Shown: positions 1,585 through 63,224 of the stretch, piece after piece
Numbering within the stretch: the stretch's first letter is position 1
Layout: each line of letters starts with the position of its first letter
DNA from: Squalus acanthias
Lineage: Eukaryota
Direction: 5' to 3'
DNA: 64,000 nucleotides
Assembly: GCA_030390025.1 (NCBI GenBank)
Contig: CM059425.1
Span: forward strand, 142,042,001-142,106,000
The notes under the pieces: generated by a model
Seen by the model: the letters and a program-made list of their open reading frames with translations, nothing else
Told to the model about the DNA's origin: nothing
Database searches by the model: none
Translations under genes and position numbers: made by a program

Positions 1585-1760
1585 CATGGTATCATTATAA
1601 ACCATCTGACAACCCTTTTCTTTGTATGGACCCAACACCAGTTTGCCACAAGAAAATGTCTTCCCATTTAAGCTCTTGCAGATGGCAATGGACCTATTAT
1701 CCTCATACTCTGTCTTTAAGGGATAGAAGAAATCACACGTTTCTGAAGTTTGAACGCAGT
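1585..1760 (-). CDS. CENPC: CENP-C cupin (dimerisation) domain, first exon ([12 protein letters not shown]...[31 protein letters not shown])
   Basis: Acceptor actttcag, donor ATG|gtaagt, phase 1 to 0; matches the FSTGKLILGPxxEKGxQ cupin signature of vertebrate CENP-C. Confidence 0.92.
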
Positions 1761-31700: not shown

Positions 31701-34700
31701 TTAGCTCAAACCCCAATGTGGGACTCCAACCCACAATCCTCTGGGTCAGATGCAAAAGTGCTACAACTGGGCAAAGCTGACATGATATGCACTTAATTTT
31801 TTCCCTTCTGCTTAAATCCATATCATTCCTTATATGCAAGTTGATTATTGAACTCTTGCTTTGAGCTGGATGTGGTTAGAGAAAAGAAAAGCAGCAAAGT
31901 GAGGGAGATATTTATTTAAAACAGGAGGTTCCCAAACTGGGGGGAGGGTGATGGTTAATGGGGGGCATGAGGAGAATGGGCTGGCTCACAGCATCAATCA
32001 GAAGAACGTGCTACTGGAGGAGGCAGAACTGGTGGACATTGATGCTTTGCTCTTAGCGTAGAGGAAAATACAGAGGAAAGAGCAAAAATGAGAGAATGCA
32101 GCAGTAATGTGCAGAGTACAGGAAATGTAGGGGCCTGGAGAGAATAACCTTAACAGTTGCTGTTATTTGCAATGCTCATTTGCTCAATGGGTGCTCGCAG
32201 CCCACATCCTGCACCACTGGAGGTAATTCAATTCTGGAGTTCAAATGTCAAGGAATAAGCTCACCAGTACTAAATGCCTCCCTGAAATCAAACCCTGCAC
32301 TCAATATTATTCATTACACCTCATGTGTAAACCAAAGAACACAAATGTTTACTTTTCCCATAAGCAGTACTGCTACAGTACAGATTATACTGCAAGTTTG
32401 GTAAATGCACCTCATACAAAAGGCTGCCATGTTAATGTCCTTCATGAATGATTGTCACAGAGCAAGGTTTGTTCATGGCAAAAAAGGCTCAATGGGCCAA
32501 ATGGCATACTCCCATTCATAGAAACTTAATTGACTGGGCTTGGTGAACCAGATACTGCTGTAACAACTTACATTTACATTGTGCCTTTAATGAGAAAAAC
32601 ATCCCAAGGCACTTCAGATAGGCATACTGAAAACAGATACCGGGCCAGGAAAGGCTAAGATTTCATTTGAACGTGCCCTGAATATACACCTTCTTCCCTA
32701 AAACATGCATATTTACAATCCTTTCTCCAGATATAAGATTTAGCGACAGTATTTACATACATTTAGATTTTTTTTTTGAAGTAATTGTACACAGCTTGCA
32801 GGAGGGTACTCTGAGTACAAGCAATGTGCATGATGAAACAAAATCTGACTAGAATCTGAAATATAGGAAGCATGACTGTTCTCTTCCTCACATTACGCTC
32901 TTGTTGAAAATTCAAGATATTCACTAATCATTATGGATTCAGAGTAGCCACTTAACATCAACTTACTGGCAATTAATATGTAGAACAGTAACTCTACTGA
33001 TGTTGGCTGTGGTGACTGGCAAAATCTCAGCAGCAAAGTATTGGATCACAATATCTGTATTTTAATTTTAAACATATAAATAAACAGGATATCCAAAATA
33101 CTGGAAAAACTGAAAGAGTCAAATGAAAAAAAGTTACCTGTTGGTTTCTGTTTCTGTTGTTTCTTTGCTCTCTTTTTGCTTTGAGTTCCCGGTTTTGCAA
33201 ATAAAGTTAGCTTTGATTTCTTTTCATCACTATGTAGCCCCCCGGGCAAATTTACTGAACTTTCAGATTCTGGGAGCTTCTTCGAAGTAATCATACCCTG
33301 CTCAGACAGTCTGGACTTTTCAGTTCTGTTTCTGTTTTCCTCAACACAGAAATGTGGTTCCTGGTGTAATTCCTCTCGCTGTTCTTGTAATTCCCCCTGC
33401 TCTTCAGCTCCGTCAAATTCAACTATAGATTTGTCCCTTGGTGGTCTTAGTTTTAATTCTCCTAATTTTTTTTGTTTGGGAGACAAATGTTTAGAGTGGG
33501 ATAAAGATTCATTTCGTATTTCCTGTTGCTCTCTCTCAGTATTGGCAACAGTTTTATCATTTTTCAACAGACATGCAGATCTTTTCCCAGATTCCTTTGG
33601 TTGATTTTCATTTTTTTTGTTTTTCTTGTTCTGAGCTAACTGTTTTTCATCATTGTTCTTTTTTGATTGAATGGCAACTTCTTTTCTTGTTGCATCTGTC
33701 TTCTGCCTTTTTTCTTTCTTTTTCGTTTCCTTTGCATCAGAGACAGATTTCTTTTCCTGTTCAGTTGGATCCTGGTTTGGTACCATGGCTTTCTTCGGTA
33801 TTGTAATCCATGATTCAAAACAGAAGCTCTCCTCTTCTTCCAATTCAAACTCAAACTCACGGTTAGGTGCTGAAGTAATGGGAATAACTTGTTTTGGTTG
33901 TGGTAATGCAGAAACAGCTGGCCTGTGAAGACATTTTTTTTTTAAGTTATCAATTTCTACTCTAGTCTGGAGAGTATTGTTGGTATTAAGCCTAATCAAA
34001 TGTGTAATAGTGGCCAGTAATGTTGGGAATATGATAACATGCTCTCTTACTATCCATTTTAAAATTGTCGTAAGAATATTTTTTTTTATGTTAACCGAAT
34101 CAATTTATGCAAAAAGTCAATTACATTGGCAGGTTAGGTGCTCAAGAGCCTCATATTGCCAAACTAAAGTATTGTTCATTTGTTATGTTCACCTCGCTCA
34201 ATTGGGACAGGCATTACTGGAGAAGCTGCAGTGAGAAAGCTGAAGTCTGCATTTAAAGGTGAGCTGCTTTAAAATCTCTTTCCAGTTTCTAGATTTTTGC
34301 ACATTATAGGAACTGGTACCGAACTTAGCAACAGAACCATCAAATGCTGGAAAAGGCTATCAAGTACACAAGGCACAGTATTAAATCCCACCACTACACT
34401 ACTGTAGCAGGGAGTTATCTGGTAATGGCAATAGGGGTGTGTCTAAGCTTTAACAGGGAAGCAGTGACAAGAGCTGTGCAATCCCCTTTCAGAAAACCTC
34501 TAGACAATATGCAACATCTGCATGGCAGTGACACTGCCCAACATCAGCATGGGCCTTGTTTTTTATGCACCAAGCTCTCTCCTGGCTAGCAGAGGACATT
34601 TGCAGTGTTAGCTGCATCAAGGTGGTGACAGATGCATAATTTAACAGACAATGACATCACCACTGTTGCCTCTGACCAACATCAAATAACACAAGAAGGC

Positions 34701-37700
34701 AACACAGTTCTACAGAACTGCTTTCCAGAGCCCAGGGGGTCACCTGCACCATATTGTCTTTCGGACTTCTACACAAATCTGTGCCCTAATGACTAAAGGG
34801 ATTTTAGTCTCTTAATGTGAATATGGTACGCAACCACCACCAGAGAGCCAGCAGGTCAATACCTGCTTCCTCATGAACTCTCGAGATGTTTTAATTTGAA
34901 ATCAGACATCTGTGCCATCCTTTATTTGAAAATAAATGAAGAATGGAAGGATTGCAGGTGTAATAAAGCTAATGCTACAACTATAATTATCAAATATCCC
35001 ATTGGGATCTTCAGGCAACACTTCAGATAGCTGAACTCATCTGCAGCAAACTTACAGTGCAACCCACCTCCCCAGGTGTCCTTCATTCTGAAAATGCTAC
35101 AGTGAAATCAGCAGCAGTACTAGCAATCCAGCAGCATAGACTGGTGAGCCAGGCATTAATTCCACAATTCCAGATGCCTTCCCATGAGTGCAACAGCAAT
35201 ACCGTTTCTTAAAAAGACAAACCATATCTGCAAATTAATTGTACCTAGACCACCTTATCCTCCATTTTTATGCAACCAGGTGAATTTCTAAGTTTCTACA
35301 TTAAATGTGCTCATTTTTTCACCTAAAACATATAGTTTTCATAACTCAGTACTGAAAGAACATTTATTGATCTAGGAAGACACAAGATGGTAATATCAAC
35401 ATTTAAGATAGATAGGAGGGAAATAATTTATAAACTAGACAAACTTAGAGGATAAAACCCCTTGCCCAGATGGATTACATCTGTGCATACTCAAAGAAGC
35501 TAAGGAAGTGATAACAGAGGCACTATATGCATTAGAGGGAAAGATAGAGCAAATCCAGGGAACTATAGATCAGTTAGCTTTACTTCAGTGGTAGGAAAGA
35601 TAATGGAATCTTTACTCAAAGATGTAATAGAAAAACCATTTAGAAACTGAAAATATAATAAAGAGTAGTGAGCACAGATTTCAAAAGGGAAGGTAATGCT
35701 TGACCAACCTTATTGAATTCTTTGAAGAAGTAACAAAGAGTAGACATGGGTAATGCAGTAAATGTAATGTATTTGGATTTTCAAAAGGCCTTCGATAAGG
35801 TACTGCAAAGTTGACTCATGACTAAGGTCAGAGCATGTGGAGTCAGAGGACAAGTAGCAGAATGGATAGCAAGTTGGCTACAGAATAGGAAACAGAAAAT
35901 AGGGGTTAAAGGTAGTTACTCAGACTGGCGGAAGGTGTGAAGTGGTGTTCGACAGGGATTGGTGCTGGGACCACTGTTGTTTACCAGTTACATAAATGAT
36001 TTGAACTCGGGAATTGGAAGTACAATATGAAAATTTACAGTTGATACCAAATTGGAGGTAGTCAATATTGAGGAAGACTGCAACAATATACAAGAAGTCA
36101 TCAGCAAACTTGCAGAATTGGAATGTAAATGGCAAATTAATTCCAACATAGATAATTGGGATGGTGCATTTTGGTAGAAGGAATAAAGAGGCCACCTACT
36201 CCTTGGAAAATAAGAGTCTAAATGGGGTCGAGGCGCAAAGGGATATAGGGGTACAGATTCAGAAATCATTAAAAAGTAGCAACACAGGTTAGCAAAGCCA
36301 TAAGAAGTGCAAACAAAGGGATTCATTTCTAGAGGAATAGAATTTAAAGAAAAAGTTACGTAAAACTTATATAGAACTTTGGTTAGACCACACGGAGTAC
36401 CGTGAACAGTTCAGGTCTCCATATTACAAAAAGGATATAGAAGTACTGGAGAAAGTACAAAAAAGATTTACAAGGATGATGCCAGAAATGAGAGGGTACA
36501 ACTATCAGAAAAGACTGAACAGACTGGGGCTCTTTTCTCTAGAAAAGAGAGGTGTGACCTGATAGAGGTCTTTAAAATTATGAAAGCGTTTGATAGGGTG
36601 CATGTAGAGACGATGTTTACACTTGTTTGGGGGGGGGGGGGGGGTGGGGGGAAACCAAAACTAGGGGCTGTAAATATAAGATAGATAGTCACCAATAAAT
36701 CCAATAGGGAATTCAGAAGAAACTTCTTTACCCAAAGAGTGGTAAGAATGTGGAACTTGCTACCACAAGGAGTGGTTGAGGCGAATAGCATAGATGCATT
36801 TAAGGGGAAGCTAGATAAGCACATGAGAAAAGAATAGGATATGCTGATTGGGTTCAATGAAGAGGGGTGGGAGGAGGCTCGTGTGAAGCATAAACGCCGG
36901 CGTAGACCAGTTCAAGATATATACAGCAGACCCAAATTCCCAACAGCTCTTGCTGTCTAATTGTGGAGCTTGTTAGAAATGGCAACAACAAACACCCAAT
37001 GGTGTTTCATCTGATGAAGCTTGGTCATGTATTTAGCCTATTCCTTCATCATGGTCCTATGAAATTGGTCCCTCAAATGGTTCAGGGCCAGTTAATCCAC
37101 TCTTGAGCTCAAGTCTACTTTTGTGCCTCAAATCAAAGGCAAGATTCTTGTGTCTCGGGTATTGTCTAAATGAGCTCACCATTCTAGAAGGAGACAGTCA
37201 CCAATATAAATGCTGCAAGAGTTGCAGGTTGCTCAGTGTTCTGTGTCCACCAAGAGTGGAGCATTAGCATCAGCAGGTTGGTACCACATCCAGCGCAGTG
37301 TTGAATGGGTTTGCTTAACTATTTTAGCAGCAAAGAAAACTGCTTTTGACTGTACAGAGGTTCAACCATTAGGATTTAAAACTAATTAGCAAAACCAAAA
37401 TAGTTAAACATGAATAGAACTTTCTCTGATGTGAGAGTCAAGGTCTTGCTGCCTTGACAGAAAGATACGAGGACTTGCCTCAGATTACGACTGCAATATT
37501 GCAGCATGTGATCAACTAGGGCAGAACATTTCTTGGACTGCGTCCCATAAATTATAGCAAATTTGCATTTCTTTGTGGCGGTTGAATTGCTAAAAATGAG
37601 TTTTGAAAAAAAAAAGTCTTTAGTTTTCTTCTTCCTTCCCCCAAATTCCAATAAAGTAATTCTCCAAGGAATGTTAAATGATATTTTTGAGCTTTACCTC

Positions 37701-40700
37701 CAAATGCAAAACTGAAGTAACAAAGTTCTGACCACTTAACATAATGGGCTTGTTACAACTGTCGTGAAATAATTTTTGAGAGCCTTAACTGAAGATTTTT
37801 TTTAAAGTTTCCTCTCCACAATATTTCCTTTGCGACTTTTCCATAATCATGCTAATCGAGAGAGATTCCAACGCCATATAGCCTCTAATATAGAAAAAGT
37901 TCCATGGCACATCTAGTGAAAAATAGTTTTGGTCTTCAAAACTCAAACATACTGCTTTAGCAAAAAGAGCCTGCACAGGGGCAGTGAGCCAAATGGCTTC
38001 CTTCTGTGTTGTAAACATTTGGTTCTATGCTTGGGAAATTATTGCTGTGACTAATCCTTGAGATCAGACCTTAAATCCTTTTTAAAAAGTCCTATTAAGA
38101 AATCATAATCATAACATTCCTATAAAGAAGGTATCAAGACTTACTTTATCCCAAATCTGTAAAATGACGACTTAGGAAACACAGATGCTTGTTCTTTCTT
38201 CTGTTTTTCAAGTCCGGAGGTGGACGGGACAACATTCTCAGTTGGATACCTATTTTGTTTATTATCCACACATGTGCTGTTCACGACTGCCGGTGTTTCA
38301 CTTACATTCAAACTTGGTCTGCAACAGAGTTATTGAGAACTTAGCAGTGACAACACAAAAGAAAAATCTAGGATTTAAGAGGCAAGGAGAGTTTTTAATG
38401 AGTAACCTGTAAAAGGAAGCACATTTCTTGAACTATAATTTATCAAGTAGAAGTTGCTGCAGCTTTCTGCAGAAATTTGATAAATCAACAGTATCCTATA
38501 TTTATATAGCGCCTTTAATGTACTAAAATATCCCAAGGCACTTCACAGGAGTGCTATCAAAAAAATAAATTGACACCAAGCTATAAAAGGAGATGTTAGG
38601 GCAGATGACCAAAAGCTTGGTCGAAGAGGTAGGTTTTAAGGAGCGTCTTAAAAGGAGGAAAGTGAAGAGGCGGAGAGATTTAGGGAGGGAGTTCCAGAGC
38701 TTAGGACCTAGGCAGCTGAAGGCACCACCGCCAATGGTGGAGCATTTAAAATCAGGGACGTTCAAAAGGCCAGAATAGGCAGAGCGCAGAGGTCTAGGGG
38801 GATTATACGGCTGGAGGAGATTACACAGATGTAAGATGGGGCAAGGCCATGGAGGGATTTGAAAACAATGATGAGAATTTTAAAATTGAGGCGTTGCTTA
38901 ACTGGGAGCCAATATAGATCAGCAAGCACAGGGGAGATGGGTGAGCAGGACTTGGTACAAGTTAGCACACGGGTGGCAGAGTTTTGGATGACCTCAAGTT
39001 TATGGAGGGTAGAACTACGGAGGCCGGCCAGGAGTGCATTGGAATAGTCAAGTCTAGAGGTGATAAAGGCATGGATGAAGGTTTCAGCAGCAGATAAGTT
39101 GAGGTAAGGGCGGAGACGGGCGATATTACGAAGATGTAATGGGCAGTCTTGGTGATAGAACGGATGAGAAGTAGGAAGCTCAATACATGATCATATGATG
39201 TCAAGGTTGCGAACAGACTTGGTCAGCCTTAGAGAGTTGCCGGGGAGAGAGATCAAATCAATGGAAAGGGAATGGAGTTTGTGGCATGAACCGAAGACAA
39301 TGTTTCAGTCTTCCCAATATTTAATTGGAGGAAATTTCTACTCATCTAATGCTGGATGTCGGACAAGCAATCTGATAGTATAGAGACGGTGGAGGGTTCA
39401 AGAGAGGTAGAGCTGGGTATCATCAGAGTACTTGTGAAAACTCATGTTGTGTTGTTAGATGATGTCACCGAGGGGGAGCATGTAGCTGAGAAATATGAGG
39501 GGGCCAAGGACAGATCCTTGGGGGACACCAGAGGTGACAGTGCGGGATCGGGAAGAGAAGCCATTGCTGGTGATTCTATGGTTACAGCTGGAAAGATAGG
39601 AACTAAACCAGGCGAGTGCAGTCCCATCCAGCTGAACAACAGTGGAGAGGCGTTGGAGCAGAATTTTGTGGTCAACCACGTCAAAGGTTGCAGACAGGGC
39701 CAGAAGGACGAGAAATGATAGATTACCTTTGTCGCAGTCAATTAGGATGTCATTTGTAACCTTAGTAAGAGCAGTTTCAGTACTGTGGCAGGGACGGAAG
39801 CCTAATTGGAGGGATTCAAACAAGGAGTTCTGGGAAAGATGGGCACAGATTTGGGAGGTGACAACACGTTCAAGAACTTTGGAGAGGAAAGAGAGGTTGG
39901 AGATGGTGCAAGGGTTTGCAAGGATAGAGGGTCAAGGGTTTTTTTTTTTTGAGAGGGGTGCTGACGGCAGATTTGAAGGAAAGGGGGAAAATACCGGAGG
40001 AGAGACACCGTTAACAACATCCACTAACATGGGAGCCAGGCAGGAAAGTTGGGTTGTCAGCAATTTAGTAGGAATAGGGTCGAGAGAGCAGGTCGGTCAG
40101 TCTCATTGACCAGATGAGCTTTGAAAGTGCAAGAGGGGAGACAGGAGAGAAATGAGAAATATGCAAATTTAGGGTTAAGGCAGGGGGAAAACAGAGAGGA
40201 AGCAAGGTCCAGTGAGCTAGGGGAAGGGAGGGAATTGAAAGCAGAAGCAGTTGAACGGATGTTGTCAATCTTTTTAACAAAGAAGTCTGTGAGCTCCTCA
40301 CATTTATTGTTGGAGGTGAGGGAGGAGGAAGGAGAGGGTGGTTTGAGAAGATGGTTAGTTGTGGATAATCGGGGGGCAGTACTGTGTGGCGGGGGCAGGT
40401 TGGTAGAGGACCTTTGTCTTACTGTGAAGAGAAGCCTGGTGTTATTTTTGCCATCAGCTAATGATTATCAAGTATACAAGTGTACAACAGTGCCCCAACT
40501 GTAACAGTCAACGTGTTAAATTTCATAGAATCATACAGCACAGAAAGAGGCCTTTCAGCCCCTTGTGCTTCTGCCAGCTCTTTGAAAGAGCTATCTTATT
40601 GGTCCCATTTCCTTGCCCTTTCCCCATAGTCCTGCAAATGATTTGTGCTTTTCAAGTATATATCCAATTCCTTTTTGAAAGTTACTTGTGAATCTTCTGC

Positions 40701-52700: not shown

Positions 52701-55700
52701 ATAGAGGATTGGCTAACTAACAGAAAAGAGTGAGTCAGGATAAATGGGTCATTTTCAGGTTGGCAAACTGTAACTAGTAGGGTGCCACAGAGATCAGTGC
52801 TGGGGCCTCAACTATTTACAATCTATATTAATGACTTGGATGTAATGACCAAGTGTACTGTAGCCAAATTTGCTGACGATACAAAGATAGGTGGGAAAGC
52901 AAGTTGTGAGGAGGACACAAAGGGCTGGATTTTCAATGACCCGTGGAGTCGGGTTTGGAGGCGTAGGGGGGGGTTAAAGTTGCAGATTCGGGGGTCCCGA
53001 CCCCATCCCGCCTCCACGCAATTTTGACTAAATCGGTCACGGGGTTCCCGACTCCGTCCCGCCTCCAAGAGGCGGGAGAGGCCATTAAAGCCCTTAACAA
53101 GCCCTAAATTGGCTCTGTAATGCCATTTTGAAACTTTTAGCTAGTTTAACCCTTTTCCGACGTGAAGTACGCCTGATGTGAAACCTGGCGGGAGCACAAG
53201 TGGATAGCTGATTATCAGCTGCAGGTCCACTATTACAACGGAGATGTGATGAAGGTAGTATTAGTATTAGGTCTGAAAGTCGCCTCTGATGCTGCTGCAT
53301 TAAAAATTCATTCTCTCTCTCTCGCTGCTCATTTTGCATCAATGATGACATCATCAGAGGCGACTTTCAGACTGAAACCACTAATTAGTTCATGGGTTCC
53401 CACATGCTGGAACTCAATTGCCCAATTAAGTGAAAATTGCATCAATCTCCCACATCCAATTGCAGGCGGGTGGATAACACGAAATGCGGATGACACGACC
53501 CCAACCCGCCCCAGTATCAAAATCCAGCCCAAAGAGTCTGCAAAGGGATATAGATAGGTTACATGAGTGGGCAGATGGGGTATAATGTGGGAAAATGTGA
53601 GGTTATCCACTTTGGTAGGAAGAATACAAAAGCAAAATATTATTTAAATGGAGAGAGACTACAGAATGCTGCGGTACAGAGGGATCTGGGTGTCCTCGTA
53701 CAGTCACTGAAGGTGGGAATGCAAGTGCAGCAGGCAGTCAAGAAAGCAAACGGAATGATGGCCTTCATAGCAAGGGGATTTGAGTACAGGAGTAGGGAGG
53801 TGATGCTACAGTTGTACAGGGCCTTGGTGAGGCCACACCTGGAGTATTGTGCGCAGTTTTGGTCTCCTAACTTAAGGAAGGACATTCTTGCTATTGAGGG
53901 AGTGCAGCGAAGGTTCACTAGATTGATTCCTGGGATGGCCGGACTGACATATCAAGAAAGATTGGGTCAACTGAACTTGTATCCTCTGGAGTTCAGAAGA
54001 ATGAGGGGGGATCTTATAGAGACATTTAAAATCCTGACTGGTTTAGACAAATTAGATGCGGGCAGAATGTTCCCAATGGTAGGGAAAACTAGAACCAGGG
54101 GTCACAGTCTAAGGATTAAGGGGAAGCCATTTAGGACTGAGCTGAGGAGGAACTTCTTCACCCAGAGAGTGGTGAATCTATGGAATTCTCTTCCACAGAA
54201 GGTTGTTGAGGCCAGTTCGCTAAATATATTCAAAAGGGAGTTAGATATAACACTCACAACTAAGGGGATCAAGGGGTATGGCGAGAAAGCAGGAATGGGG
54301 TACTGAGGTAGCATGTTCAGCCATGAACGCATTGAATGGCGGTGCAGGCTCGAAGGACCGAATGGTCTACTCCTGTACCTATTTTCTATGTTTCTATGAA
54401 ACACAAAAAGTTAGCATGCAGGTAAAGCAAGTAATTAGGAAGACAAATGGAATGTTGGCCTTTATTGCAAGGGGGATGGAGTATAAAAGTAGGGGATTCT
54501 TGCTTCAACTGTACAGGCCGTTGGCGAGACGACACCTAGAGTACTGCGTACAGTTTTGGTCTCATTTATGGAGTGATATACTTGCATTGGAGGCAGTTCA
54601 GAGAAGGTTCAATAGGTTGATTCCCGGGATGAAGGGGTTGTCTTATGAGGAAAGGTTGAGCCTATACACATTGGCATTTAGAAGAATGAGAGGTGATCTT
54701 ATTGCAACATAAGATTCTGAAGGGGCTTGACAGGGTAGATGCTGAGAGGATGTTTCCCCTTGTGGGGGAATCTATAACTAGGGGGCATAGTTTCAGAATA
54801 AGGAGTCGCCCATTTAAAACGGAGATGAGGAGGAATTTCTTCTCTCAGAAGGTCGTGAATCTGTGGAATTCTCTACCCCCGCGAGCTGTGGAGGCGGAGT
54901 CATTGAATATATTAAAAGCTGAGATAGACAGATTTTTGAACTACAAGGGAGTCGAGGGTTATGGGGAACGGGCAGAAAAGTGGAACTGAGGCCAAGATCA
55001 GATCAGCCATGATCTTATTGAATGGCGGGGCAGGCTCGAGGGGCCAAATGGCCTACTCCTGCTCCTATTTCTTATGTAACAAACGACATAGGTAGGAACA
55101 GGGAGGAGGTCCTGCTAAGGGAGTATTGGGAGTTAGGAGCTAAATTAAAAAGCAGGACATAGAGGGTAATAATCGCTGGATTATTGCCTGAGCCACGTGC
55201 AAATTGACATAGAATCAGTCAGATCAGGAGAATTAACACATGGCTAAAGGGCTGGTGTGGGAAAGAGGGGTTCCTTTTCATGGGACACTGGCACCAGTAC
55301 TGGGACAGGAAGGAGCTGCACCGATGGGACCCGTGTCCTAGCTAAAATAAGAACATAAGACATAAGAACATAAGACGCAGGAGCAGGAGTAGGTCATTTG
55401 GCCCCTCGAGCCTGCTCCGCCATTCAATAAGATCATGGCTGAACTGATCTTGGCCTCAACTCCACTTCCCTGCCCGCTCCCCATAACCCTTCACTCCCTT
55501 ACCATTCAAAAATCTGTTTATCTCCACCTTAAATATATTCAATGACTCAGCCTCCACAGCTCTCTGGGGAAGAGAATTCCAAAGATTCACGACCCTCAGA
55601 GAAGAAATTCCTCCTCATTTCAGTTTTAAATGGGTGCCCCCTCGTTCTAGATTCCCCCACGAGGGGAAACATCCTCTCTGCATCTACCCTGTCAAGCCCC

Positions 55701-58700
55701 TTCAGAATCTGATATGTTTCAATAAGATTCCCTCTCATTCTTCTAAACTCCAATGAATATAGGCCCAACCTGCTCAACCTTTCTTCATAAGACAACCCCT
55801 TCATCTCCTGAATCATCCTCGTGAACCTTCTGAACTGCCTCCAATGCAAGTATATCCTTCCTTAAATAAGGAGACCAAAACTGTAGGCAGTGCTCCAGGT
55901 GTGGTCTCACCAACGCCCTGTACAGTTGTAACAGGACTTCCCTACTTTTATACTCCATTCCCTTTGCAATAAAGGCCAACATTCCATTTGCCTTCCTAAT
56001 TACTTGCTGTACCTACATGCTAACTTTGTGATTCATGTGCAAGGACCCCCAGATCCCTCTGTACCTCAGCATTTTGTAATCTCTCCCCATTTAAATAATA
56101 ATTTGCTTTTTTATTTTTCCTACCAAAGTGGATAACCTCGCATTTTCCCACATTATACTCCATCTGCCAGATTTTTGCCCACTCACTTAACCTATCTACA
56201 GCCTTTTGGAGATTCGTTGCGTTCTCCACACAATTTGCTTTCCCACCTATCTTTGCATCATCAGCAAATTTGGCTACAGTACACTCAGTCCCTTCATCCA
56301 AGTCATTAATATAGATTGTAAATAGTTGAGGCCCCAGCACTGATCCCTGCGGCAGCCCACTAGTTACAGTTTGCCAACCTGAAAATGACCCATTTATGGT
56401 AAATAGGGAGGTGGCAAAGGCTTCAAACTAGTAAGATGGTGGGGGAGGGATTTACAAGAAATGAAACCAGCCTAAATATAAACAAAACAGGAAAGGAGAG
56501 CATAGCAAATAATAAAGTAAGGGAGGGCATTGATGGCCCGGGAATAAATAGAGTTATAGCACAGGAGTTTAAAAAGATGGTTAAAAATAAAGTGAAAGGA
56601 ACTGCTATTAAAAATGAGTTAATCTGTCTGTACAGCATTGCACAGTGTCCGTAATAAAACAGGGGAGCTGGAAGCAATCATGCGTTGCGAGGAACCAGAC
56701 ATGGTAGGGTTTACCGAGACATGGCTACAGAAAAATCAGGACTGGGAATTAAACATTGCAGGGTATAACATATTTAGAAAAAAGATAGAGAGGGAAAAGG
56801 GGGAGGTGGAGTAGCTGTACTTATTAGGGATAACATAATGGCAGTAGAAAAAAGTGGCCATCAGCAAGACAGAAATAGAATCCATGTGCATAGAGATAAA
56901 ACATAAAGGATCAAACAAACTAATAGGGCTAGTCTACAGGCCACCTAATAGTGGAAGGGAGGTGGAGGAAGAAATATGCAAACAAATTAGGGAAATGAGT
57001 AAAAAACATGGAATAATAATCATGGGGGACTTCAACTACCCCAATATTAATTGGACAGAAGAGGTAGGTAAAAGGGATAAGGGAATGGAGTTCCTACAAT
57101 GTGTACAGGACTCCTTTCTAACCCAATATGTGAAAAGCCCAACAAGGGAGGATTCGCTATTGGATCTAGTAATGGGGAATGAATCAGAGCAGATAAGGGA
57201 ACATCTAGGCAATAGTGACCATAATATAATACGCTTTAAGTTAAAAGTTGAGAAGGACATAAGTATGACAAAGACCAGGGTAATAGATTGGAGAAAAGCT
57301 GATTTTGAGGGGCTGAGAATAGAATTTGGGAAAATAACATGGACAACAATATTGGCAAACAATGACGTAGAATGACAATGGGAATTTAAAACTGTTCAAC
57401 AGAGTTCATAAAAAACAAAAACGAGCTAAATACTAATGAGACACCATGGATGAATAAAGCCATAAGGGAAAAATTGAGGGAAGGAATGAAGCATACATTA
57501 AGTACATGGCAAGCAGGGGAGAGCATGATAAGGGAGAATACAAAGAAATTAGGAGAGAAGTCAAAAAAACAATTAGGAAGGCAAAGAGGAACTATGAAAT
57601 TAAATTATCAAGGAACATAAAAGAAAATAGTAAAATATTTTACAGCTACAGAAGTAAAAAAAAAAGGAAGGTCAGGATGGGAATAGGACCACTAAGGGAT
57701 GGACAGAGTAATACCACAGGCAGTGATAGAGAGATGGCAGAAATATTAAATAATTACTTTGCTTCAGTATTTACCAGGGAGATCAAACAGGTGGACATAG
57801 CATCAGATGATGAGATTAGTAATGAGATGACTTAATTTAAAATAAAAAGGAGATATATTAAATAAACTAATCAAACTCAGGATAAAACCCCTGGTCCGTA
57901 CGGAATGCATCCGCGTATTTTAAAAGAATCTAGGGAAGAGATAGCAGAGGCATTACTACACATATTTAATAATTCGTTAGAACAAGGTATAGTGCCAGAG
58001 GACTGGCGGATAGCTAACGTAATAAATATATTTTTAAAAAGAGAGAACATGTCCAGGGAACTATAGACCTGTCAGCTTAACATCGGTGGTAGGAAAAATA
58101 ATGGAATCCCTACTAAAAGGAGAAAATAGAAGAACATCTAGAAACCAAAAATATAATAATGAATAGTCAGCATGGATTTCAAAAGGGAAAGTCTTGCTTG
58201 ACCAACCTCACTGAATTCTTTGAAGAGGTAACAGAGAGAGTAGACAAGAGTAATGGAGTAGATGTAATTGATCTAGATTTTCAAAAGGCCTTCGATAAGG
58301 TACCGCATAATAAACTAATGAATAATGTCAGAAATGCAGAGTCAGGGGACAAGTAGCAGAATGGAGAGCTGGCTGGATGAAAGATAGAAAGCAGAGAGTA
58401 GGGGTAAAGGGTAGCGATTCAGAGTGGCAGAAGGGGGGGGGGGAAGTGGTGTTCCACAAGGATCAGTGCTGGGACCACTGTTGTTCACGATTTATATTAA
58501 CGATTTAGACTTTGGAATCAAAAACACAATTTCGAAATTTGCAGATCACACCAATTTTTTTGGGGGGGGTTAGTTAATACTGAGGAGAACTGCAATAAAT
58601 TACAGGAAGACATTAATAAACTTGTAGAATGGACATATAATTAGCAAATGAATTTCAACACAGATAAATGTGAGGTATTACATTTTGGTAAGAAGAATAG

Positions 58701-61700
58701 GGAGATCACTTATTACTTGGAGGGTGAGAGTCTGGGTCGGGTAGAGGAGCAAAGGGATCTCGGAATACAAATATAAAAATCACTAAAAGTAACGACACAG
58801 GTTAACAAGGCCATAAAAAAAGCAAACCAAGGACTAGGGTTTATTTCTAGAGGGATAGAATTGAAAAGTAGTGAAGTTATGCTAAACTTGCATCGAACCT
58901 TGGTTAGACCACACTTGGAGTACTGCATAAAATTCTGGTCGCCATATTATAAAAAGGATATAGAGGCACTGTAGAGGGTGCAGAGAAGATTTACAAGAAT
59001 GACACCAGAAATGCGAGGATATACCTATCAGGAAAGGATGAACAGGCTGGGTCTCTCTTCTCTTGAAAAGGGAAGCCTGAGGGGTGACCTAATAGAGGTC
59101 TTTAAAATTATGAAGGGTTTTGATAAAGTGGATAGAGAGAGAATGTTTCCACTTGTGGGGAAGAACAAAACTAGAGGCCATCAATATAAGATAGTCACCA
59201 AAAAATCAAATAGGGAATTCAGAAGAAACTTCTTTACCCAAAGAGTGGTGAAATTGTGGAACTTGCTACCACAGGGAGTGGTTGAAGCGAATAGTATAGA
59301 TGCATTTAAGGGGCGGTTAGATAAGCATATGAGGGAGAAGGGAATAGAGGGTTATGCTGATAGTTAGATGAGGAAAGACAGGAGGAGGCTCTAGTGGAGC
59401 ATAAACAACGGCATGGGCTGGTTGGGTCAAATGGCCTGTTTCTGTGCTGTATATCCTATGGAGTAAGTTTTTATTTAGCCTCTATTGAGTGATTACAGTT
59501 CACAAAACTTTTTTTGTATAGTTTGTTGTGTATATTAGTTTATATTACACATTTGTACATTTACATTTATTGTGTCGCTTTAGTCACACAATTGTGATAC
59601 TGACTGTGAGCCCCGAGTGCTTTATTTGCTATGAGGAGTGTCCAGGATAGCGGTGAAGAGCTACTGATAACTTGTCTGTACAGTTTTCTTGTCACCAATA
59701 CAAAGCTGGGTGGGAATGTAAGTTGTGAGGAAGATGCAAGGAGGCTTCAAGGGGACAGGCTAAGTGAGTGGGCAACAACATGGCAAATGGAATATAATGT
59801 GAAGAAATGTGAAGTTATCCACTTCGGTAGAAAAAAATAGAAAAGCAGAGTATTTTTTAAATGGAGAGAGATTGGAAAATGTTGGTGTTCAGAGGGACCT
59901 GGATGCCCTTGTACACGAGTCACTGAAAGTTAACATGCAGGTACAGCAAGCAATTTGGAAAGCAAATGGTATGTTGGCCTTTATTACAAGAGGATTTGAG
60001 TACAAGAGTAAAGATGTCTTACTGCAATTATATAGGGCCCTGGTGAGACCACACCTGGAGTATTGTGTAGTTTTGGTCTCCTTACCCAAGGAAGGATATA
60101 GTTGCCATAGAAGGAGTGCAACGAAGGTTCACCAGACTGGTTCCTGGGATGGGTGGGGGAGGGGGGGAATTGTCCTATGAGGAGAGATTGAGTAGACTAG
60201 GCCTATATTCTCTAGAGTTTAGAAGAATGAGAGGTGATCTCATTGAAACATACAAAATTCTTACAGGGCTCGACAGGGTGGATGCAGGGAGAATGTTTCC
60301 CCTGGCTGGGAAGTCTAGAACCAGGGGTCACAGTCTCAGAATAAGGGGTCAGCCATTTAGGACTGAGATGAGGAGAAATTTCTTCACTCAGAGGGTGGTG
60401 AATCTTTGGAATTCTCTACCCCAGAGGGCTGTGGAGGCTCAGTCGTGGAGTATATTCAAGACAGAGATCGATAGATTTTTGGATATTAAGGGAATCAAGG
60501 GATATGGGGATAGTGCAGGAAAATGGAGATGAGGTAGAAGATCAGCCATAATCTTATTGAATGGCGGAGCAGGCTCGAAGGGCCAAATGGCCTACTCCTG
60601 CTCCTATTTCTTATGTTCTTGACGAGAGTTAGTTATGGATGTGCCCAGCCCCTGACCCACTGCCAGCAAACAAACGTGGGAGCAAGAACAGCAGAGTCTG
60701 ATTCACATTGACTGCAGGCAGATAAAGGGGGGTTCATGTGAAAGATCGAAGAGGAAACCCAGCATGGGCTTCAAGAGCAGGAGGAGATGGAGCTGAACAG
60801 GGAGATAGTGGGCAGGGGAAAGAACAAGTCCAAGCACCGTTTTTTGCAGGATTTTCTTTTAATGCTCGCCATTTATATGGGAAATTTAATCCGGTCAAAA
60901 ACTGTGTTTAATCATAAGGATTAAATGTAAATTGCAGGATTCAAGTGTTGGCAATTCTTGGCTTCCAACTGCTGCTCACCAGTGACTAATGCATTCCCCA
61001 CAACCTTCTCAGTGCTCACCCATTTCAAACTAACTTCTGATTTTAGTGAGGAATAAATGTGGATTTTTCTTTTTAAAACAAGTAATTTACCACAAGTTTG
61101 CATTTCAAATTCTTAGCTGCAAATTCACAGGCCACCTAGATTATTCTCTTTTTTAAAAAAAACAACAGTTGAACAAAAAAGGTCACGAGCAAATATGCAG
61201 GTCTCCTTAACTAGAGAATAAGGAAGATATTGGACAGCTCACACATATGTGGTAAAAGACATGGACAACTTGTGTGGTATAAAACCTGAAGAGAAACTTG
61301 TATGTTTTTTGTTAATTTAGTATAAGACTACAAGGAGCATCACAGAATGCATCCAGCAGTCATCATTAGCCCTTCAAGTTTGTTCAAAGAGTCTGCAGCA
61401 AAGGAGGTTGTTTATTGGCTAGTAGGATTTGACTTTGGTTTGGAAATGAGTTTGCTTCTATTTTGTTTAGATAATGGCCCGTATTTTCCGATCTGGAAAA
61501 AAATCTACGGACTTACCTGAGGGCTCCTGAGGTGCGTATACTTCCGTTACTGAGCCTTTCCAAACTCGAAATGCGCAGGGCCCACGTATCCCAGAGGCGC
61601 ATGCAGTTCGCAAGTGTCCCTGCGATCACGTGGGCCATGGGGAGCCAATAGGAGAAGGGAATCTCCCTTCAAACACTTGACAGATAGGCCTGTCAAATAT

Positions 61701-63224
61701 ATGAATGGAGATCACCCCAAAAACACTAAAACATTAAATACATTTTTTAAAAACCATCACATTTTTTAAATGAGTTGGAATTACAATAACATTTAAACAA
61801 AAATTTAATTTTTTGAAAAAAAGAATTAAAGTTATTTACTGGGCTAAAAATAAACTTACCTTTTTTTTTAAAAAAAAAAGTATTTTTAAATGATAAATGA
61901 GTGAAATTTTTTTTTTTTTACTTTTTTCAACTCTTAAAGCAGGCCTTACAAATTTCTAAGGGTTTTCTGCGGGCGCAGGTTCTCCAGAAAGCGGAACTAT
62001 CCGCCCGCAGAGGCCCTTCTCTAGGGCAGGCGACGGATCTGTCAAGAGCATTCTTGACAGATCGGAAATGCCAGTTTTCAAGCGCATGCGCTGTACATGC
62101 CTGAAACCGGCATTTCCGATGTCCCTACGGGTGTGTACACAGCTCGTATACACCCGTAGGCATCGGAATATATGGCCCAATGTTTGTGCAAGTTATTTTC
62201 TCTCTATATAACATGAACAGGTGTTTGTGTACTCAAACTTCAGAATGCTTGGGCCAGATGAGGCACCCGCTACTAATCAAGCTGGTTCACTGATGAGGTG
62301 AGTGAGCACACAGCGGCTTGAGTTTTAAAACAGCCAAAGGCTCACAGTAAAGTAATTCTGATCAGGTCAGCACACATACTGTACACGAATCACTTCTATG
62401 CAGGAGATAACCAGCATTAATCAGATGCTGTTTTAGAGTACATATAAAATGATTTACCTGATAACATTGGTCCTTTAACCACTTCCTTTTTGTTTGGAGT
62501 TTCAGGTTCTGCGTACAAATTTTTTTTAGGTGTTTTTCTGTTACTTGCTACTGCTTTGGGCAAACTGACCGAACTACCAGATTCTGCAGAGTTCTTACAA
62601 TTTACTGCACCCTGCTCAGATACTTTGGACTTTTCCATTCCGTTTGCTTTTTCTGCAACACATAAAAGTGTTTTTTCTAGGAATGCCTCACATTCATCTC
62701 TGTTGCTCTCAATTGCAGCACATTTTTTTCCTGATTTTCTATGTCCTAATTTTGTTTTTTGTTTGGGAGTCAAAGATAGTTTAGAGGCGGATGAAGGTTC
62801 ATTTTGTAATTCTTCCTGCTCTTCCTCTGCATTATTCTTCAAGAGATGTAAAGCAGACCTTTTGCCAACTTCTTCTGGTTTAGTTAGTTTGTTCAGTTTG
62901 GAAGCTTTTTTGCCCTCTAGCTGTTTAGGAAGGGACAAGGGCTCACTTAGTAATCTCTCTAGTTTTTCATCTGTGGCAGCAACTTCTTTTCTTGCTGTTT
63001 TCTGGTGGTTTTCTTTCTTTTTTACTTCCTTTATGTTCGAGACAGATTTCTTTTCTTGCTCATCTGGTTTCTGGCTTAATACTTGGGTCTTCCTCGGTAT
63101 AGTAATCCGTGACTCAAAACTGAAGTTCTCCTCTTCCATCAATTCAAACGCAAAGTCATTACACTTGGGTGCTGAAATACTAGGCACAACTTGGGCTGGT
63201 GGCGGCAATGCAGAAACAGCTGGT
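1585..63224 (-). CDS. CENPC: Centromere protein C, multi-exon gene, partial at both ends (about 1200 codons in window)
   Basis: Motifs occur in the expected order on the minus strand: [12 protein letters not shown]-binding motif, central motif [17 protein letters not shown]-motif-like exon, cupin-domain exon. The ten exons have GT-AG ends and compatible phases, total 3601 nt and give one open frame. Confidence 0.92.
2200..3080 (+). mobile_element. Old degenerate CR1 fragment
   Basis: Remnant DFQN.F.K.P and FADD motifs and a CR1-like 3' end. Confidence 0.65.
4416..5307. mobile_element. Harbinger/PIF-type MITE, family 1
   Basis: TIR GGGGGAGAAATTCAGT / ACTGAATTTTTCCCCC, 3-bp TSD ATA, GC-rich; second copy near 12120-12910. 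Confidence 0.8.
7035..7455 (+). mobile_element. Harbinger DDE transposase 3' fragment (HARBI1-like), decayed
   Basis: [20 protein letters not shown]...[15 protein letters not shown] motifs. Confidence 0.9.
7600..9560 (-). mobile_element. Harbinger Myb/SANT-like partner gene, spliced and frameshifted
   Basis: APRFSD..EALVEE..RREVL, WEQIA and [13 protein letters not shown] motifs; convergent with the transposase. Confidence 0.85.
9690..12115 (+). mobile_element. LINE ORF2 (endonuclease C-terminal part plus RT), CR1/L2-group lineage distinct from the other CR1 copies
   Basis: [47 protein letters not shown]; stops and frameshifts. Confidence 0.9.
12120..12910. mobile_element. MITE family 1, second copy with left TIR truncated
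   Basis: Colinear with 4435-5307 and ends in ATCTCCCCCCC-ATA. Confidence 0.75.
13290..13858 (+). mobile_element. L2 LINE 3' fragment
   Basis: SKLDYSN-like motif and ggtgctatataaatgca tail; homologous to the 38500-39200 element. Confidence 0.75.
14267..14326 (-). CDS. CENPC: Candidate CENP-C exon ([20 protein letters not shown])
   Basis: Resembles GGFVISGVLSP, which follows the CENP-C motif; donor CAG|gtataa; the acceptor is an unusual GAG; phase 1 to 1. Confidence 0.5.
14590..14747 (+). pseudogene. H3: Histone H3 3' fragment with histone stem-loop and HDE
   Basis: [30 protein letters not shown] (14593-14685), GGCTCTTTTAAGAGCC (14707-14722) followed by ACCA, and AGAGCTG (14741-14747). Confidence 0.92.
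15982..17540 (-). mobile_element. CR1 3' fragment with internal deletions, interrupted by a MITE
   Basis: WQMNFN..KCEVVHF and [10 protein letters not shown] motifs. Confidence 0.85.
16496..17223. mobile_element. MITE family 3 (TIR GGGCTGGAT), copy 1, with long internal palindrome
   Basis: GGGCTGGAT...ATCCAGCCC termini; near-identical to 52922-53530. Confidence 0.85.
18083..18184 (-). CDS. CENPC: CENP-C motif exon, degenerate ([34 protein letters not shown])
   Basis: Acceptor ttttgtcaatag, donor CAG|gtatgg, phase 1 to 1; aligns without gaps to RRTKRTRLKPLEYWRGERIDY. Confidence 0.88.
18750..20730 (+). mobile_element. CR1 ORF2 3' portion, apparently a chimera of two subfamilies
   Basis: RT motifs, RPHLEYC and a CR1 tail; the DFQKAF.KVPH block is repeated near 19545-19650. 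Confidence 0.88.
20740..21150 (-). repeat. SINE-like repeat
   Basis: Homologous to 25530-25920 and 31220-31780; tRNA-like head remnant at the right end. Confidence 0.55.
21214..21288 (-). CDS. CENPC: CENP-C exon ([25 protein letters not shown])
   Basis: Strong acceptor ttttttctccttccag, donor CAG|gtttaa, phase 1 to 1, 75 nt. Confidence 0.72.
21596..23153. mobile_element. Harbinger-type MITE split by a CR1 5' segment
   Basis: Imperfect TIR GGGGGAATTTTAAC / GTTAAAATCCTGCCC with ATT on both flanks. Confidence 0.6.
21720..22880 (+). mobile_element. CR1 5'UTR plus ORF1 (zinc-finger remnant and SGNH esterase), decayed
   Basis: [32 protein letters not shown] and GLLPEP motifs. Confidence 0.85.
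23993..24093 (-). CDS. CENPC: CENP-C exon ([19 protein letters not shown]...EEMM)
   Basis: Acceptor ttttatttttag, donor G|gtatga, phase 2 to 1, 101 nt. Confidence 0.85.
24337..25492 (-). CDS. CENPC: CENP-C large exon with central CENP-A nucleosome-binding motif ([17 protein letters not shown])
   Basis: Acceptor tttttatttcag, donor GT|gtaagt, phase 1 to 2, 1156 nt open; motif comparable to human RRISRRPSDWWVV. Confidence 0.92.
24487..24660 (-). repeat. Coding tandem repeat, 2 x 87 bp (29 aa)
   Basis: tttctggggctcattacaacc at 24487 and 24574; KPADxL...VSS...VVMSPR twice. Confidence 0.9.
25530..25920 (-). repeat. SINE with L2-like tail
   Basis: cttgcctttatatagc tail and homology to the other SINE copies. 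Confidence 0.6.
25922..28025 (-). mobile_element. CR1 ORF2 3' portion, interrupted by a MITE
   Basis: [24 protein letters not shown] and FFTQRVV motifs. Confidence 0.9.
26731..27469. mobile_element. MITE family 2 (TIR GGGCCAGAAATTC), copy 1
   Basis: Perfect 13-bp TIR, flanks AAT/ATT, inserted in CR1; AT-rich core. Confidence 0.88.
28163..28871. mobile_element. Harbinger-type MITE, family 4
   Basis: Imperfect TIR GGCCTGTAATTTGTGGT / ACCGCAAAATCCAGGCT, flanks ATT/AAT. Confidence 0.6.
31456..31625. repeat. Fold-back palindromic repeat inserted in a SINE
   Basis: aaataaaaacagaaaatgctggaaatac ... gtatttccagcattttctgtttttattt. Confidence 0.75.
33138..33922 (-). CDS. CENPC: CENP-C exon, CCAN-binding module copy B (PAVSALPQP...[23 protein letters not shown]...)
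   Basis: Acceptor cttcacag, donor CAG|gtaact, phase 2 to 1, 785 nt open; motif resembles human EDEFIIDE..SWITIPRK. Confidence 0.9.
35410..36910 (+). mobile_element. CR1 ORF2 3' portion, decayed
   Basis: RT motifs and a CR1 3' end. Confidence 0.88.
38145..38318 (-). CDS. CENPC: CENP-C exon ([12 protein letters not shown]...[12 protein letters not shown])
   Basis: Acceptor ctctgttgcag, donor AA|gtaagt, phase 2 to 2, 174 nt open; joins in frame to 33922. Confidence 0.8.
38490..40450 (-). mobile_element. L2 LINE RT and 3' end
   Basis: [47 protein letters not shown]; ggcgctatataaat tail. Confidence 0.9.
40520..41090 (-). mobile_element. CR1 3' fragment
   Basis: [14 protein letters not shown] motif and ttctatga tail. 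Confidence 0.85.
42009..42743. mobile_element. MITE family 2, copy 2
   Basis: TIR GGGCCAGAAATTC / GAATTTCTGCCCC, exact TSD ATT. Confidence 0.88.
42933..45915 (-). mobile_element. Long CR1 (ORF1 esterase, endonuclease, RT, tail) with internal deletions
   Basis: [31 protein letters not shown] and RT motifs. Confidence 0.9.
46080..46236 (-). CDS. Candidate additional or alternative CENP-C exon ([21 protein letters not shown]...ELLRQLLW)
   Basis: Good acceptor ttttctgcttcag and open frame; donor uncertain (GG|gtacag, phase 1 to 2); cannot directly follow exon 51623-51827 in frame. Confidence 0.45.
47837..47963. mobile_element. 127-bp hAT-type MITE
   Basis: TIR CAATGTTCCCTTTAA / TTAAAGGGAACATTG with exact 8-bp TSD GTTGTAAC (47829-47836 and 47964-47971). 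Confidence 0.9.
48828..50268 (+). mobile_element. CR1 ORF2 3' half, young subfamily
   Basis: Long open RT stretches ([24 protein letters not shown]); close to 59695-60620. Confidence 0.92.
50910..51330 (+). mobile_element. L2 3' fragment
   Basis: LADLHWLPI and PKLW motifs; gctatataaatacaagttgttgtt tail. Confidence 0.8.
51623..51827 (-). CDS. CENPC: CENP-C exon ([13 protein letters not shown]...LPQRINSK)
   Basis: Acceptor ttctttcattacag, donor GG|gtacga (modest), phase 1 to 2, non-repeat open frame that fits the preceding exon. Confidence 0.65.
52922..53530. mobile_element. MITE family 3, copy 2
   Basis: TIR GGGCTGGATTTT / AAAATCCAGCCC, TSD AAA. Confidence 0.88.
53701..54398 (+). mobile_element. 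CR1 3' fragment of a different subfamily nested in the nested CR1
   Basis: Has its own (TTTCTATG)2 tail; the host resumes at 54399 with the same RT segment. Confidence 0.85.
55346..56397 (-). mobile_element. Nested antisense CR1 3' fragment
   Basis: aagaacat-repeat tail at the left end; AKFADD and RPHLEHC motifs. Confidence 0.9.
59695..60620 (+). mobile_element. CR1 3' fragment, young subfamily
   Basis: Highly similar to 49355-50268. Confidence 0.9.
61476..62178. mobile_element. MITE family 2, divergent copy 3
   Basis: Imperfect TIR GGCCCGTATTTTCCG / CGGAATATATGGCCC, TSD AAT; shares GATCACGTGGGCCATGG and the AT-rich core. Confidence 0.78.
62458..63224 (-). CDS. CENPC: CENP-C exon, CCAN-binding module copy A (PAVSALPPP...[20 protein letters not shown]...)
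   Basis: Acceptor ttcctttcacag, donor CAG|gtaaat, phase 2 to 1, 767 nt open; paralogous to exon 33138-33922. Confidence 0.88.

Follow-up and report, generated by a model that had tools for sequence, protein, structure and literature searches.

Introduction

Human CENP-C engages the CCAN, or constitutive centromere-associated network, through short motifs. Residues 303-FIIDE-307 bind CENP-LN and extend the β-sheet of CENP-N (PMC9235857), and a structural study assigns CENP-LN binding to DEFxIDE and CENP-HIKM binding to FxxLFL (262-267), which docks as a helix (bioRxiv 2022.01.07.475394). L265-F266-L267 and W317 are additive in CENP-HIKM binding, with no contribution from the EFIID motif (PMC4494010). 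How many CCAN units one CENP-C engages, and in what arrangement, is an active question. In chicken cells, the CCAN-binding domain and the oligomerizing cupin are necessary and sufficient, and making the CCAN-binding domain oligomerize artificially brings back localization (bioRxiv 2022.08.17.504347); a basic segment adjoining the LN motif binds DNA, and the CCAN shell becomes smaller when the disordered arm is shortened (PMC13685990). The nucleosome-binding motif of CENP-C occurs in one or two copies (PMC5777823), and grass CENP-C has undergone recurrent tandem duplications of exons 9-10 and 11-12 (Talbert et al. 2004, PMC549713). Here we describe a CENP-C gene of the shark Squalus acanthias in which the exon carrying the CENP-LN-type motif stands twice. 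It lies in a stretch of 64,000 nucleotides (GCA_030390025.1, contig CM059425.1, positions 142,042,001 to 142,106,000 of the forward strand), called the window below.

Results

A single CENP-C gene on the minus strand covers the window (exons guided by orthologs; Table 1). Nine exons, from 63224 to 1585, join in frame into 3538 nt (1179 codons, 0 stops), or into 1213 codons when a frame-neutral tenth exon is added, in good agreement with the 'about 1200 aa' given by a first-pass annotation of the same DNA. The gene's 5′ exons, like its final cupin exons, fall outside the window. That annotation had also proposed that two large exons, here A and B, are divergent paralogs within one gene, joined in frame through two smaller exons, L1 and L2. 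The coordinates, lengths, phases, acceptor context and open frames of all four proved accurate. At the protein level, A and B share 123 of 270 residues (46%; E 5e-58, blastp), and at the DNA level 197 of 259 positions at the 5′ end (76%; E 5e-50) and 87 of 117 near the 3′ end (74%; blastn). This likeness is limited to the exon and 7 nt of acceptor. The flanking intron sequence that we compared between A and B gave chance-level matches only, which argues that the duplication is old, and tblastn found no third copy of the module in the window.

Searching the region between A and B with 19 orthologs (tblastn) recovered L1 and L2 only, and no N-terminal, central-motif or cupin exons, as a duplication inside one gene predicts. 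We rejected a second gene between the copies on this ground, and a recent segmental duplication or assembly artefact because no similarity extends to the introns and 17 species have orthologous A and B. The broader suspicion that two tandem genes, a pseudo-exon or an assembly error mimic a repeat draws on the 5′ end of the gene lying beyond the window and on a gene model built from genomic sequence and protein models. Given 46% identity between exons with unrelated introns, canonical splice sites that are all in frame, and A and B copies that each roughly follow the species tree, we regard it as having a negligible chance of being right.

The duplicated unit is larger than one exon. L2 resembles the region just upstream of A in the orthologs (hhalign 94%, E 1.2e-7), and L1 shows a weak match to the region one further upstream (33%, E 4.7e-4); eight control pairs reached at most 1.1%. 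L2 is thus a copy of the exon directly preceding A, and L1 probably one of the exon before that, making the unit two, probably three, exons long. A and L1 together measure 972 nt, so that skipping both keeps the frame, as does skipping L2 alone. Matching patterns occur in database models: isoform X3 of Carcharodon has neither A nor L1, and isoform X2 of Scyliorhinus canicula corresponds to the skipping of L2. Skipping of A and L1 could yield a one-site isoform. Separately, the second half of exon B holds an extra internal repeat of ~80 residues in P0001, P0003, P0004, P0005, P0007, P0008, P0010, P0012, P0013 and P0019, and not in the window, Pristiophorus, Heterodontus or the carpet sharks.

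Exon B used as a query retrieved 18 proteins, every one from a shark or ray, and a cupin search added Narcine. Both copies are present in 17 of the 18, the exception being Carcharodon isoform X3 (P0009); isoform X2 of the same species has both, and so does Narcine, with a shortened A. Every one of the 17 species retrieved (11 sharks, 6 rays) is therefore represented by a protein model that joins A and B in one chain. A tree built from 38 module sequences gathers all 18 A copies, from sharks and rays alike, on the same side of one branch (95/81*, and 98/97* with a smaller set). The window copies are closest to those of Pristiophorus and Heptranchias, which fits a squalomorph shark. Since the A copies of sharks and rays form a clade of their own, the duplication, as dated by this tree, predates the split between the two groups. 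Sharks and rays parted ~270-300 million years ago. Two of these proteins bear labels unrelated to centromeres, 'uro-adherence factor A-like' (P0001) and 'axoneme-associated protein mst101(2)-like' (P0019), and several others are 'uncharacterized'; such names may explain why the repeat was overlooked.

In Callorhinchus milii, one copy with Trp is accompanied by one degenerate copy (P0025) or two (P0168). These copies sit on long branches: copy 1 joins A at 54/0, and a topology that keeps the Callorhinchus copies together is not rejected (p-AU 0.34). A match to the L1 profile precedes each extra copy (6.8-9.1 bits, against a maximum of 0.1 in 50 shuffles), and we found no L2 match between the copies. 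The tree does not place the copies, and it is the L1-like linker that favors, without proving, one shared event in the ancestor of all living cartilaginous fishes, which lived ~410-420 million years ago. The two database entries for this species differ: P0168 (NCBI) has an additional, near-identical repeat of 215 residues (linker and degenerate module) that P0025 (UniRef) does not, either a recent duplication or an isoform or assembly difference.

The first-pass annotation had called the duplicated segment a CCAN-binding module, and its assignment to human CENP-C 283-332 is supported by position and motif. Residues 638-689 of Pristiophorus, in copy B, align with this human stretch in a single, weak match (7.7 bits, i-E 6.8; phmmer, PDB). 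In copy B, EFEFELEE aligns with the human motif, with the F, the L and the acidic flanks present. The equivalent of F303 is Phe in the window and in all 17 homologous B copies, and the Trp of SWIxIP, equivalent to W317, is found in the window and in 16 of the 17; only Narcine B is without it, and Narcine A keeps it. In copy A, the F303-equivalent is Phe in the window and in 13 of 16 homologs (Heterodontus is truncated there), the 305 position is hydrophobic in 16 of 16, and Trp is kept in all six rays. The window codons at the Trp position are CGG (A) and TGG (B). In Pristis, Hypanus and Mobula, the I305 position is Ser in B and Leu in A. Read across lineages, the motif losses are complementary between the copies. 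Behind both window motifs, which lie 381 residues apart, runs a Lys-rich stretch (14 and 15 Lys plus Arg in the next 50 residues). In sharks, a short xFG(K/I) element stands 26-28 residues upstream of the motif in both copies. The human FxxLFL lies upstream of the human part that matches this exon, and its equivalent would be expected here at the 3′ end of L2. An FxxLFL-like segment ~37-40 residues upstream of the motif is visible by eye in several non-shark proteins (P0020 copy 2, P0061, P0032 and P0022).

Several observations weigh against two working docking sites. The human match is weak by itself and leans on position and motif. The Trp317-equivalent is absent from A in all 12 sharks, the window included (R, L, Q or K). 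Three carpet sharks have I, I and T instead of F303 in A, the D306 position is non-acidic in 16 of 16 homologous A copies, and window A has Ala and Met at two acidic positions, the Ala at that of E302. No clear FxxLFL helix for CENP-HIKM was found in either shark copy, the exon upstream of window A lying outside the window. The homologs are database gene predictions rather than single-molecule cDNAs, and one Carcharodon gene model skips A. The extra Callorhinchus copies are degenerate. Finally, the overall constraint on the pair is only moderate, as described below.

On the strong form of the first-pass reading, each copy recruits a complete CCAN, so that CCAN per chain is doubled. Both LN-type motifs are conserved, five of the six rays keep Trp in both copies, the human W317A mutation alone impairs HIKM binding only partly (PMC4494010), and ~380 disordered residues separate the motifs, all of which would suit two full modules. 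At least one copy, however, departs from the human-type motif in every species examined: by the loss of Trp from A in the sharks and by Ser at the I305 position in B of three rays, besides the missing FxxLFL. We judge a clean doubling improbable. The homology of the segment is supported, and the earlier notion of two equivalent modules, each for CENP-LN and CENP-HIKM, is not supported in that form; 'two complete CCAN modules' is an overstatement, because shark A lacks the Trp and FxxLFL is not clearly found.

Copy A might instead have changed its partner, its FEL(M)..ESFSFES.I.IP(R/K)K segment binding something other than CENP-LN after Trp was lost in the shark stem. A-specific residues are indeed fixed across lineages: the D306 position is hydrophobic or Thr, and eight of nine galeomorph sharks have Gln where Trp stood. 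Yet what A has kept are the two hydrophobic residues by which the human motif is anchored on CENP-LN in the structure (bioRxiv 2022.01.07.475394), and no result points to an alternative partner. We rate a switch as very unlikely.

Conservation patterns speak for constraint on both copies. Between window A and B, the synonymous divergence (dS) is 0.66 and the nonsynonymous divergence (dN) 0.39, giving a dN/dS of 0.59 over 239 codons (bootstrap 0.39-0.80), an only moderate value whose interval for the first 85 codons extends to 1.08. Across 17 proteins, the 24-residue motif has a mean pairwise identity of 75% in A and 81% in B, compared with 53% (A) and 52% (B) for the remainder of the exon, and the motif windows rank top for conservation in both exons. 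These patterns indicate that copy A, whose neutral decay would have undone the earlier reading, is not decaying neutrally and that a short CENP-LN-type motif is selectively conserved in both copies. 

Another reading accommodates many of the same data. One copy would bind CCAN at a time, the other being kept in reserve, redundantly or through alternative splicing, or acting as a spacer and DNA-binding arm by which the tether length is set. Complementary degeneration across lineages would equally be expected if a single good copy sufficed; P0009 is a model with one module; the extra Callorhinchus copies decayed; the chicken CCAN shell shrinks with a shorter disordered region (PMC13685990); and CENP-C-like proteins readily gain other internal repeats. 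A pure spacer, however, would not hold the motif at 75% against 53% for the rest of exon A. We consider this reading unlikely, if worth keeping in mind.

The shark gene belongs, by its cupin and central motif, to the CENP-C/Mif2 family, of which its degenerate CENP-C motif makes it an atypical member. The first cupin exon is ~70% identical to ortholog cupins, although the window has the first part of the domain only; in the full-length orthologs P0001 and P0002, the PF11699 cupin scores 67-68 bits against a cut-off of 29, and the top PDB matches of the Pristiophorus protein are CENP-C cupins (1e-28 to 1e-20, phmmer). Exons A and B are 81% and 82% identical to residues 257-511 and 637-893 of Pristiophorus CENP-C, respectively. 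Several orthologs carry the database name 'centromere protein C(-like)', and their N-terminus has a conserved YRSRY(F/Y)R segment. None of exon A, exon B and the central exon had a significant Pfam match. Of 19 elasmobranch proteins, 17 have RxxxxPxxWW; the other two are Leucoraja isoforms that are truncated. The frame-neutral exon encodes a degenerate CENP-C motif, an RSKR-type core followed by KHLLGE without Tyr-Trp, and a matching segment occurs in one of 19 homologs (Heptranchias). The canonical CENP-C motif (RxxRxxxxPLxYWxGER, per PMC4830207) was not encountered, and YW or WW occurs in the last 400 residues of 0 of 19 chondrichthyan proteins, in line with the report of a Callorhinchus CENP-C motif without tryptophans (Kral, PMC4830207). 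The central motif appears to be the only nucleosome-binding motif on which the CENP-C of cartilaginous fishes relies. Within the central exon, positions 24487-24650 form an in-frame tandem repeat with an 87-bp (29-codon) unit in 1.9 copies, 80% identical; Pristiophorus has one copy.

Multiplication of the motif is not confined to cartilaginous fishes. A cupin search of a library at 50% identity gave 281 proteins, the best 150 of which were taken (148 new). For the repeat survey we scanned 79 proteins of at least 700 residues, setting aside shorter ones, five mammal-like entries and one tag fusion, with an iterated motif profile whose cut-off exceeded every score obtained in five locally shuffled versions of the set. 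The motif was found in 34 of the 79 and at least twice in nine, with scores that are inflated because hits were added to the profile; the shark-only profile already gave P0020, P0076, P0100 and P0090 more than one match. Windowed self-alignment shows repeats over the motif region in eight of the nine multi-copy proteins, all except P0061. Repeat identity ranges from ~28% (P0020) through ~80% over 350 residues (P0076) to as much as 100% (P0153), and P0072 is a near-identical, single-copy sister of P0076. A quick cupin tree of 42 rows requires eight changes in copy number, at least five of them forced by starred branches. All 14 scanned proteins that group with the chicken anchor (P0030, taken as PDB 7by0 from length and match) are single-copy. 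Motif multiplication in these proteins is apparently independent of the shark event, mostly separate from case to case and often younger; some multi-copy models may carry assembly or annotation errors. We dropped the idea that multiplication is tied to loss of the CENP-A motif: five of the nine multi-copy non-chondrichthyan proteins are without RxxxxPxx[WYF]W, but three of the nine have two, and the five are close relatives.

The remaining self-similarity of the window lies in introns. Six intronic open reading frames were scanned: four match families of reverse transcriptases, endonucleases or transposases, and one more matches a Myb/SANT domain. Decayed fragments of long interspersed nuclear elements (RVT_1, Exo_endo_phos_2) are scattered throughout the introns, for example at 10498-11163, 39455-39931 and 56848-57375, and make up much of the intronic self-similarity. 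A 17.5-kb intron holds a DDE_Tnp_4 nuclease fragment (7032-7397, +; E 9e-17) and, convergent with it, a Myb/SANT-like fragment (9105-9557, -; E 7e-4), together presumably a decayed Harbinger-type transposon. On the strand opposite to CENP-C, at ~14590-14725 (+) in an intron, a short coding-like fragment ends in a stop followed by a GGCTCTTTTAAGAGCC hairpin; we take the fragment to resemble the 3′ end of a histone H3 gene and the hairpin to be a histone stem-loop. Intronic segments at 16858-17065, 17262-17383 and 31454-31592 are palindromic or inverted repeats, 75-89% self-complementary.

Table 1. Features of the CENP-C gene in the window, in order of transcription; motif coordinates are derived from the exon frame.
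Feature	Position	Strand	Description
Exon A	62458..63224	-	767 nt, phase 2 to 1, TTCACAG/GTAAAT; first of the two large exons that carry a CENP-LN-type motif
CENP-LN-type motif of copy A	63089..63157	-	F303- and I305-equivalents F and L; Trp317-equivalent Arg
Linker exon L1	51623..51827	-	205 nt, phase 1 to 2; probably a diverged duplicate of the exon two upstream of A
Exon L2	38145..38318	-	174 nt, phase 2 to 2; diverged duplicate of the exon directly upstream of A
Exon B	33138..33922	-	785 nt, phase 2 to 1, TTCACAG/GTAACT; second copy
CENP-LN-type motif of copy B	33790..33858	-	complete, Trp present
Central exon	24337..25492	-	1156 nt; RxxxxPxxWW CENP-A-nucleosome-binding motif
CENP-C coding exon	23993..24093	-	101 nt
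CENP-C coding exon	21214..21288	-	75 nt
Frame-neutral exon	18083..18184	-	102 nt; AG/GT intact; degenerate CENP-C motif
CENP-C coding exon preceding cupin	3575..3673	-	99 nt
First cupin-domain exon	1585..1760	-	176 nt; other cupin exons past the window start

Discussion

One CENP-C chain may engage two CCAN complexes, as the first-pass annotation had suggested, and the version that we favor, at somewhat better than even chances, is asymmetric: a single chain with two unequal CENP-LN docking sites. By analogy with human and chicken CENP-C, each motif would add a β-strand to the sheet of CENP-N, and the Lys-rich residues that follow would contact DNA. The single cupin would dimerize and oligomerize the chain and so present two CENP-LN sites ~380 residues apart. 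In sharks, B would be the full site, combining the LN motif with the Trp that aids CENP-HIKM binding, and A an LN-biased site, expected to be weaker because one HIKM determinant is missing. The predicted effect is greater avidity, cross-linking of neighboring CCAN units and a longer disordered arm, not a clean doubling of complete CCANs. The excerpt of PMC8245036 contained nothing decisive for the mechanism.

If two unequal sites are indeed in use, one chain could bridge two CCAN units. Chicken work has approached the question by reducing CENP-C to a CCAN-binding domain with an oligomerizing cupin and by linking shell size to arm length (bioRxiv 2022.08.17.504347, PMC13685990). Sharks and rays would offer a natural two-site version that has long been maintained and whose losses differ between lineages (Trp gone from shark A, kept in ray A and gone from Narcine B), by which the LN motif and the Trp motif could be separated and valency tested. 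More tentatively, and with the odds against it, the CCAN-binding valency of CENP-C could be an evolvable setting: two CCAN-docking sites with one nucleosome-binding site in cartilaginous fishes over hundreds of millions of years, an arrangement opposite to the human one, independent two- to fivefold multiplication of the motif in several other lineages, and alternative splicing that may switch a shark cell between forms with one and two sites. On this reading, one chain would bridge two CCAN units, and the 1:1 unit of CENP-C and CCAN in human and chicken models would not be general.

The extension to sharks and rays as a whole and the similar repeats in other CENP-C-like proteins go beyond the first-pass annotation. 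The latter suggest a general pattern that we did not find described in the literature searched. That literature, which took in few subscription papers and no figures, likewise yielded no account of a CCAN-binding region being duplicated in sharks or other vertebrates. Kral (PMC4830207, main text) covers shark and teleost CENP-C and does not mention the duplication. Public gene models already hold both copies, with no comment attached.

The shark gene encodes a variant of a known protein. Human and chicken CENP-C share with the shark protein the order of an N-terminal part, an LN-type motif with SWIxIP, a central RxxxxPxxWW and a C-terminal cupin. The module, however, is matched once in human and is present in one copy in the chicken-anchor group, whereas the shark gene has two, with no clear FxxLFL and a degenerate CENP-C motif. 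Human CENP-C carries two CENP-A-nucleosome-binding motifs, its central region along with the CENP-C motif, and thereby valency for nucleosomes (PMC5777823, PMC9235857); in the shark protein, the second nucleosome motif lacks its tryptophans and the CCAN motif is doubled. P0020, P0076, P0100, P0153, P0090 and others resemble it in having 2-5 LN-type motif copies per chain, and differ in occupying several places in the cupin tree and in repeats that are ~28%-100% identical. A precedent in kind is grass CENP-C, where sets of exons were likewise duplicated in tandem within the gene, recurrently and with later specialization and loss; the grass repeats are basic, putatively DNA-binding and located in a poorly conserved middle region, whereas the shark unit contains a defined vertebrate CCAN docking motif (PMC549713). 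Exon duplication in CENP-C thereby has a precedent, and the shark repeat is, as far as gene models and homologs indicate, an old and conserved intragenic duplication.

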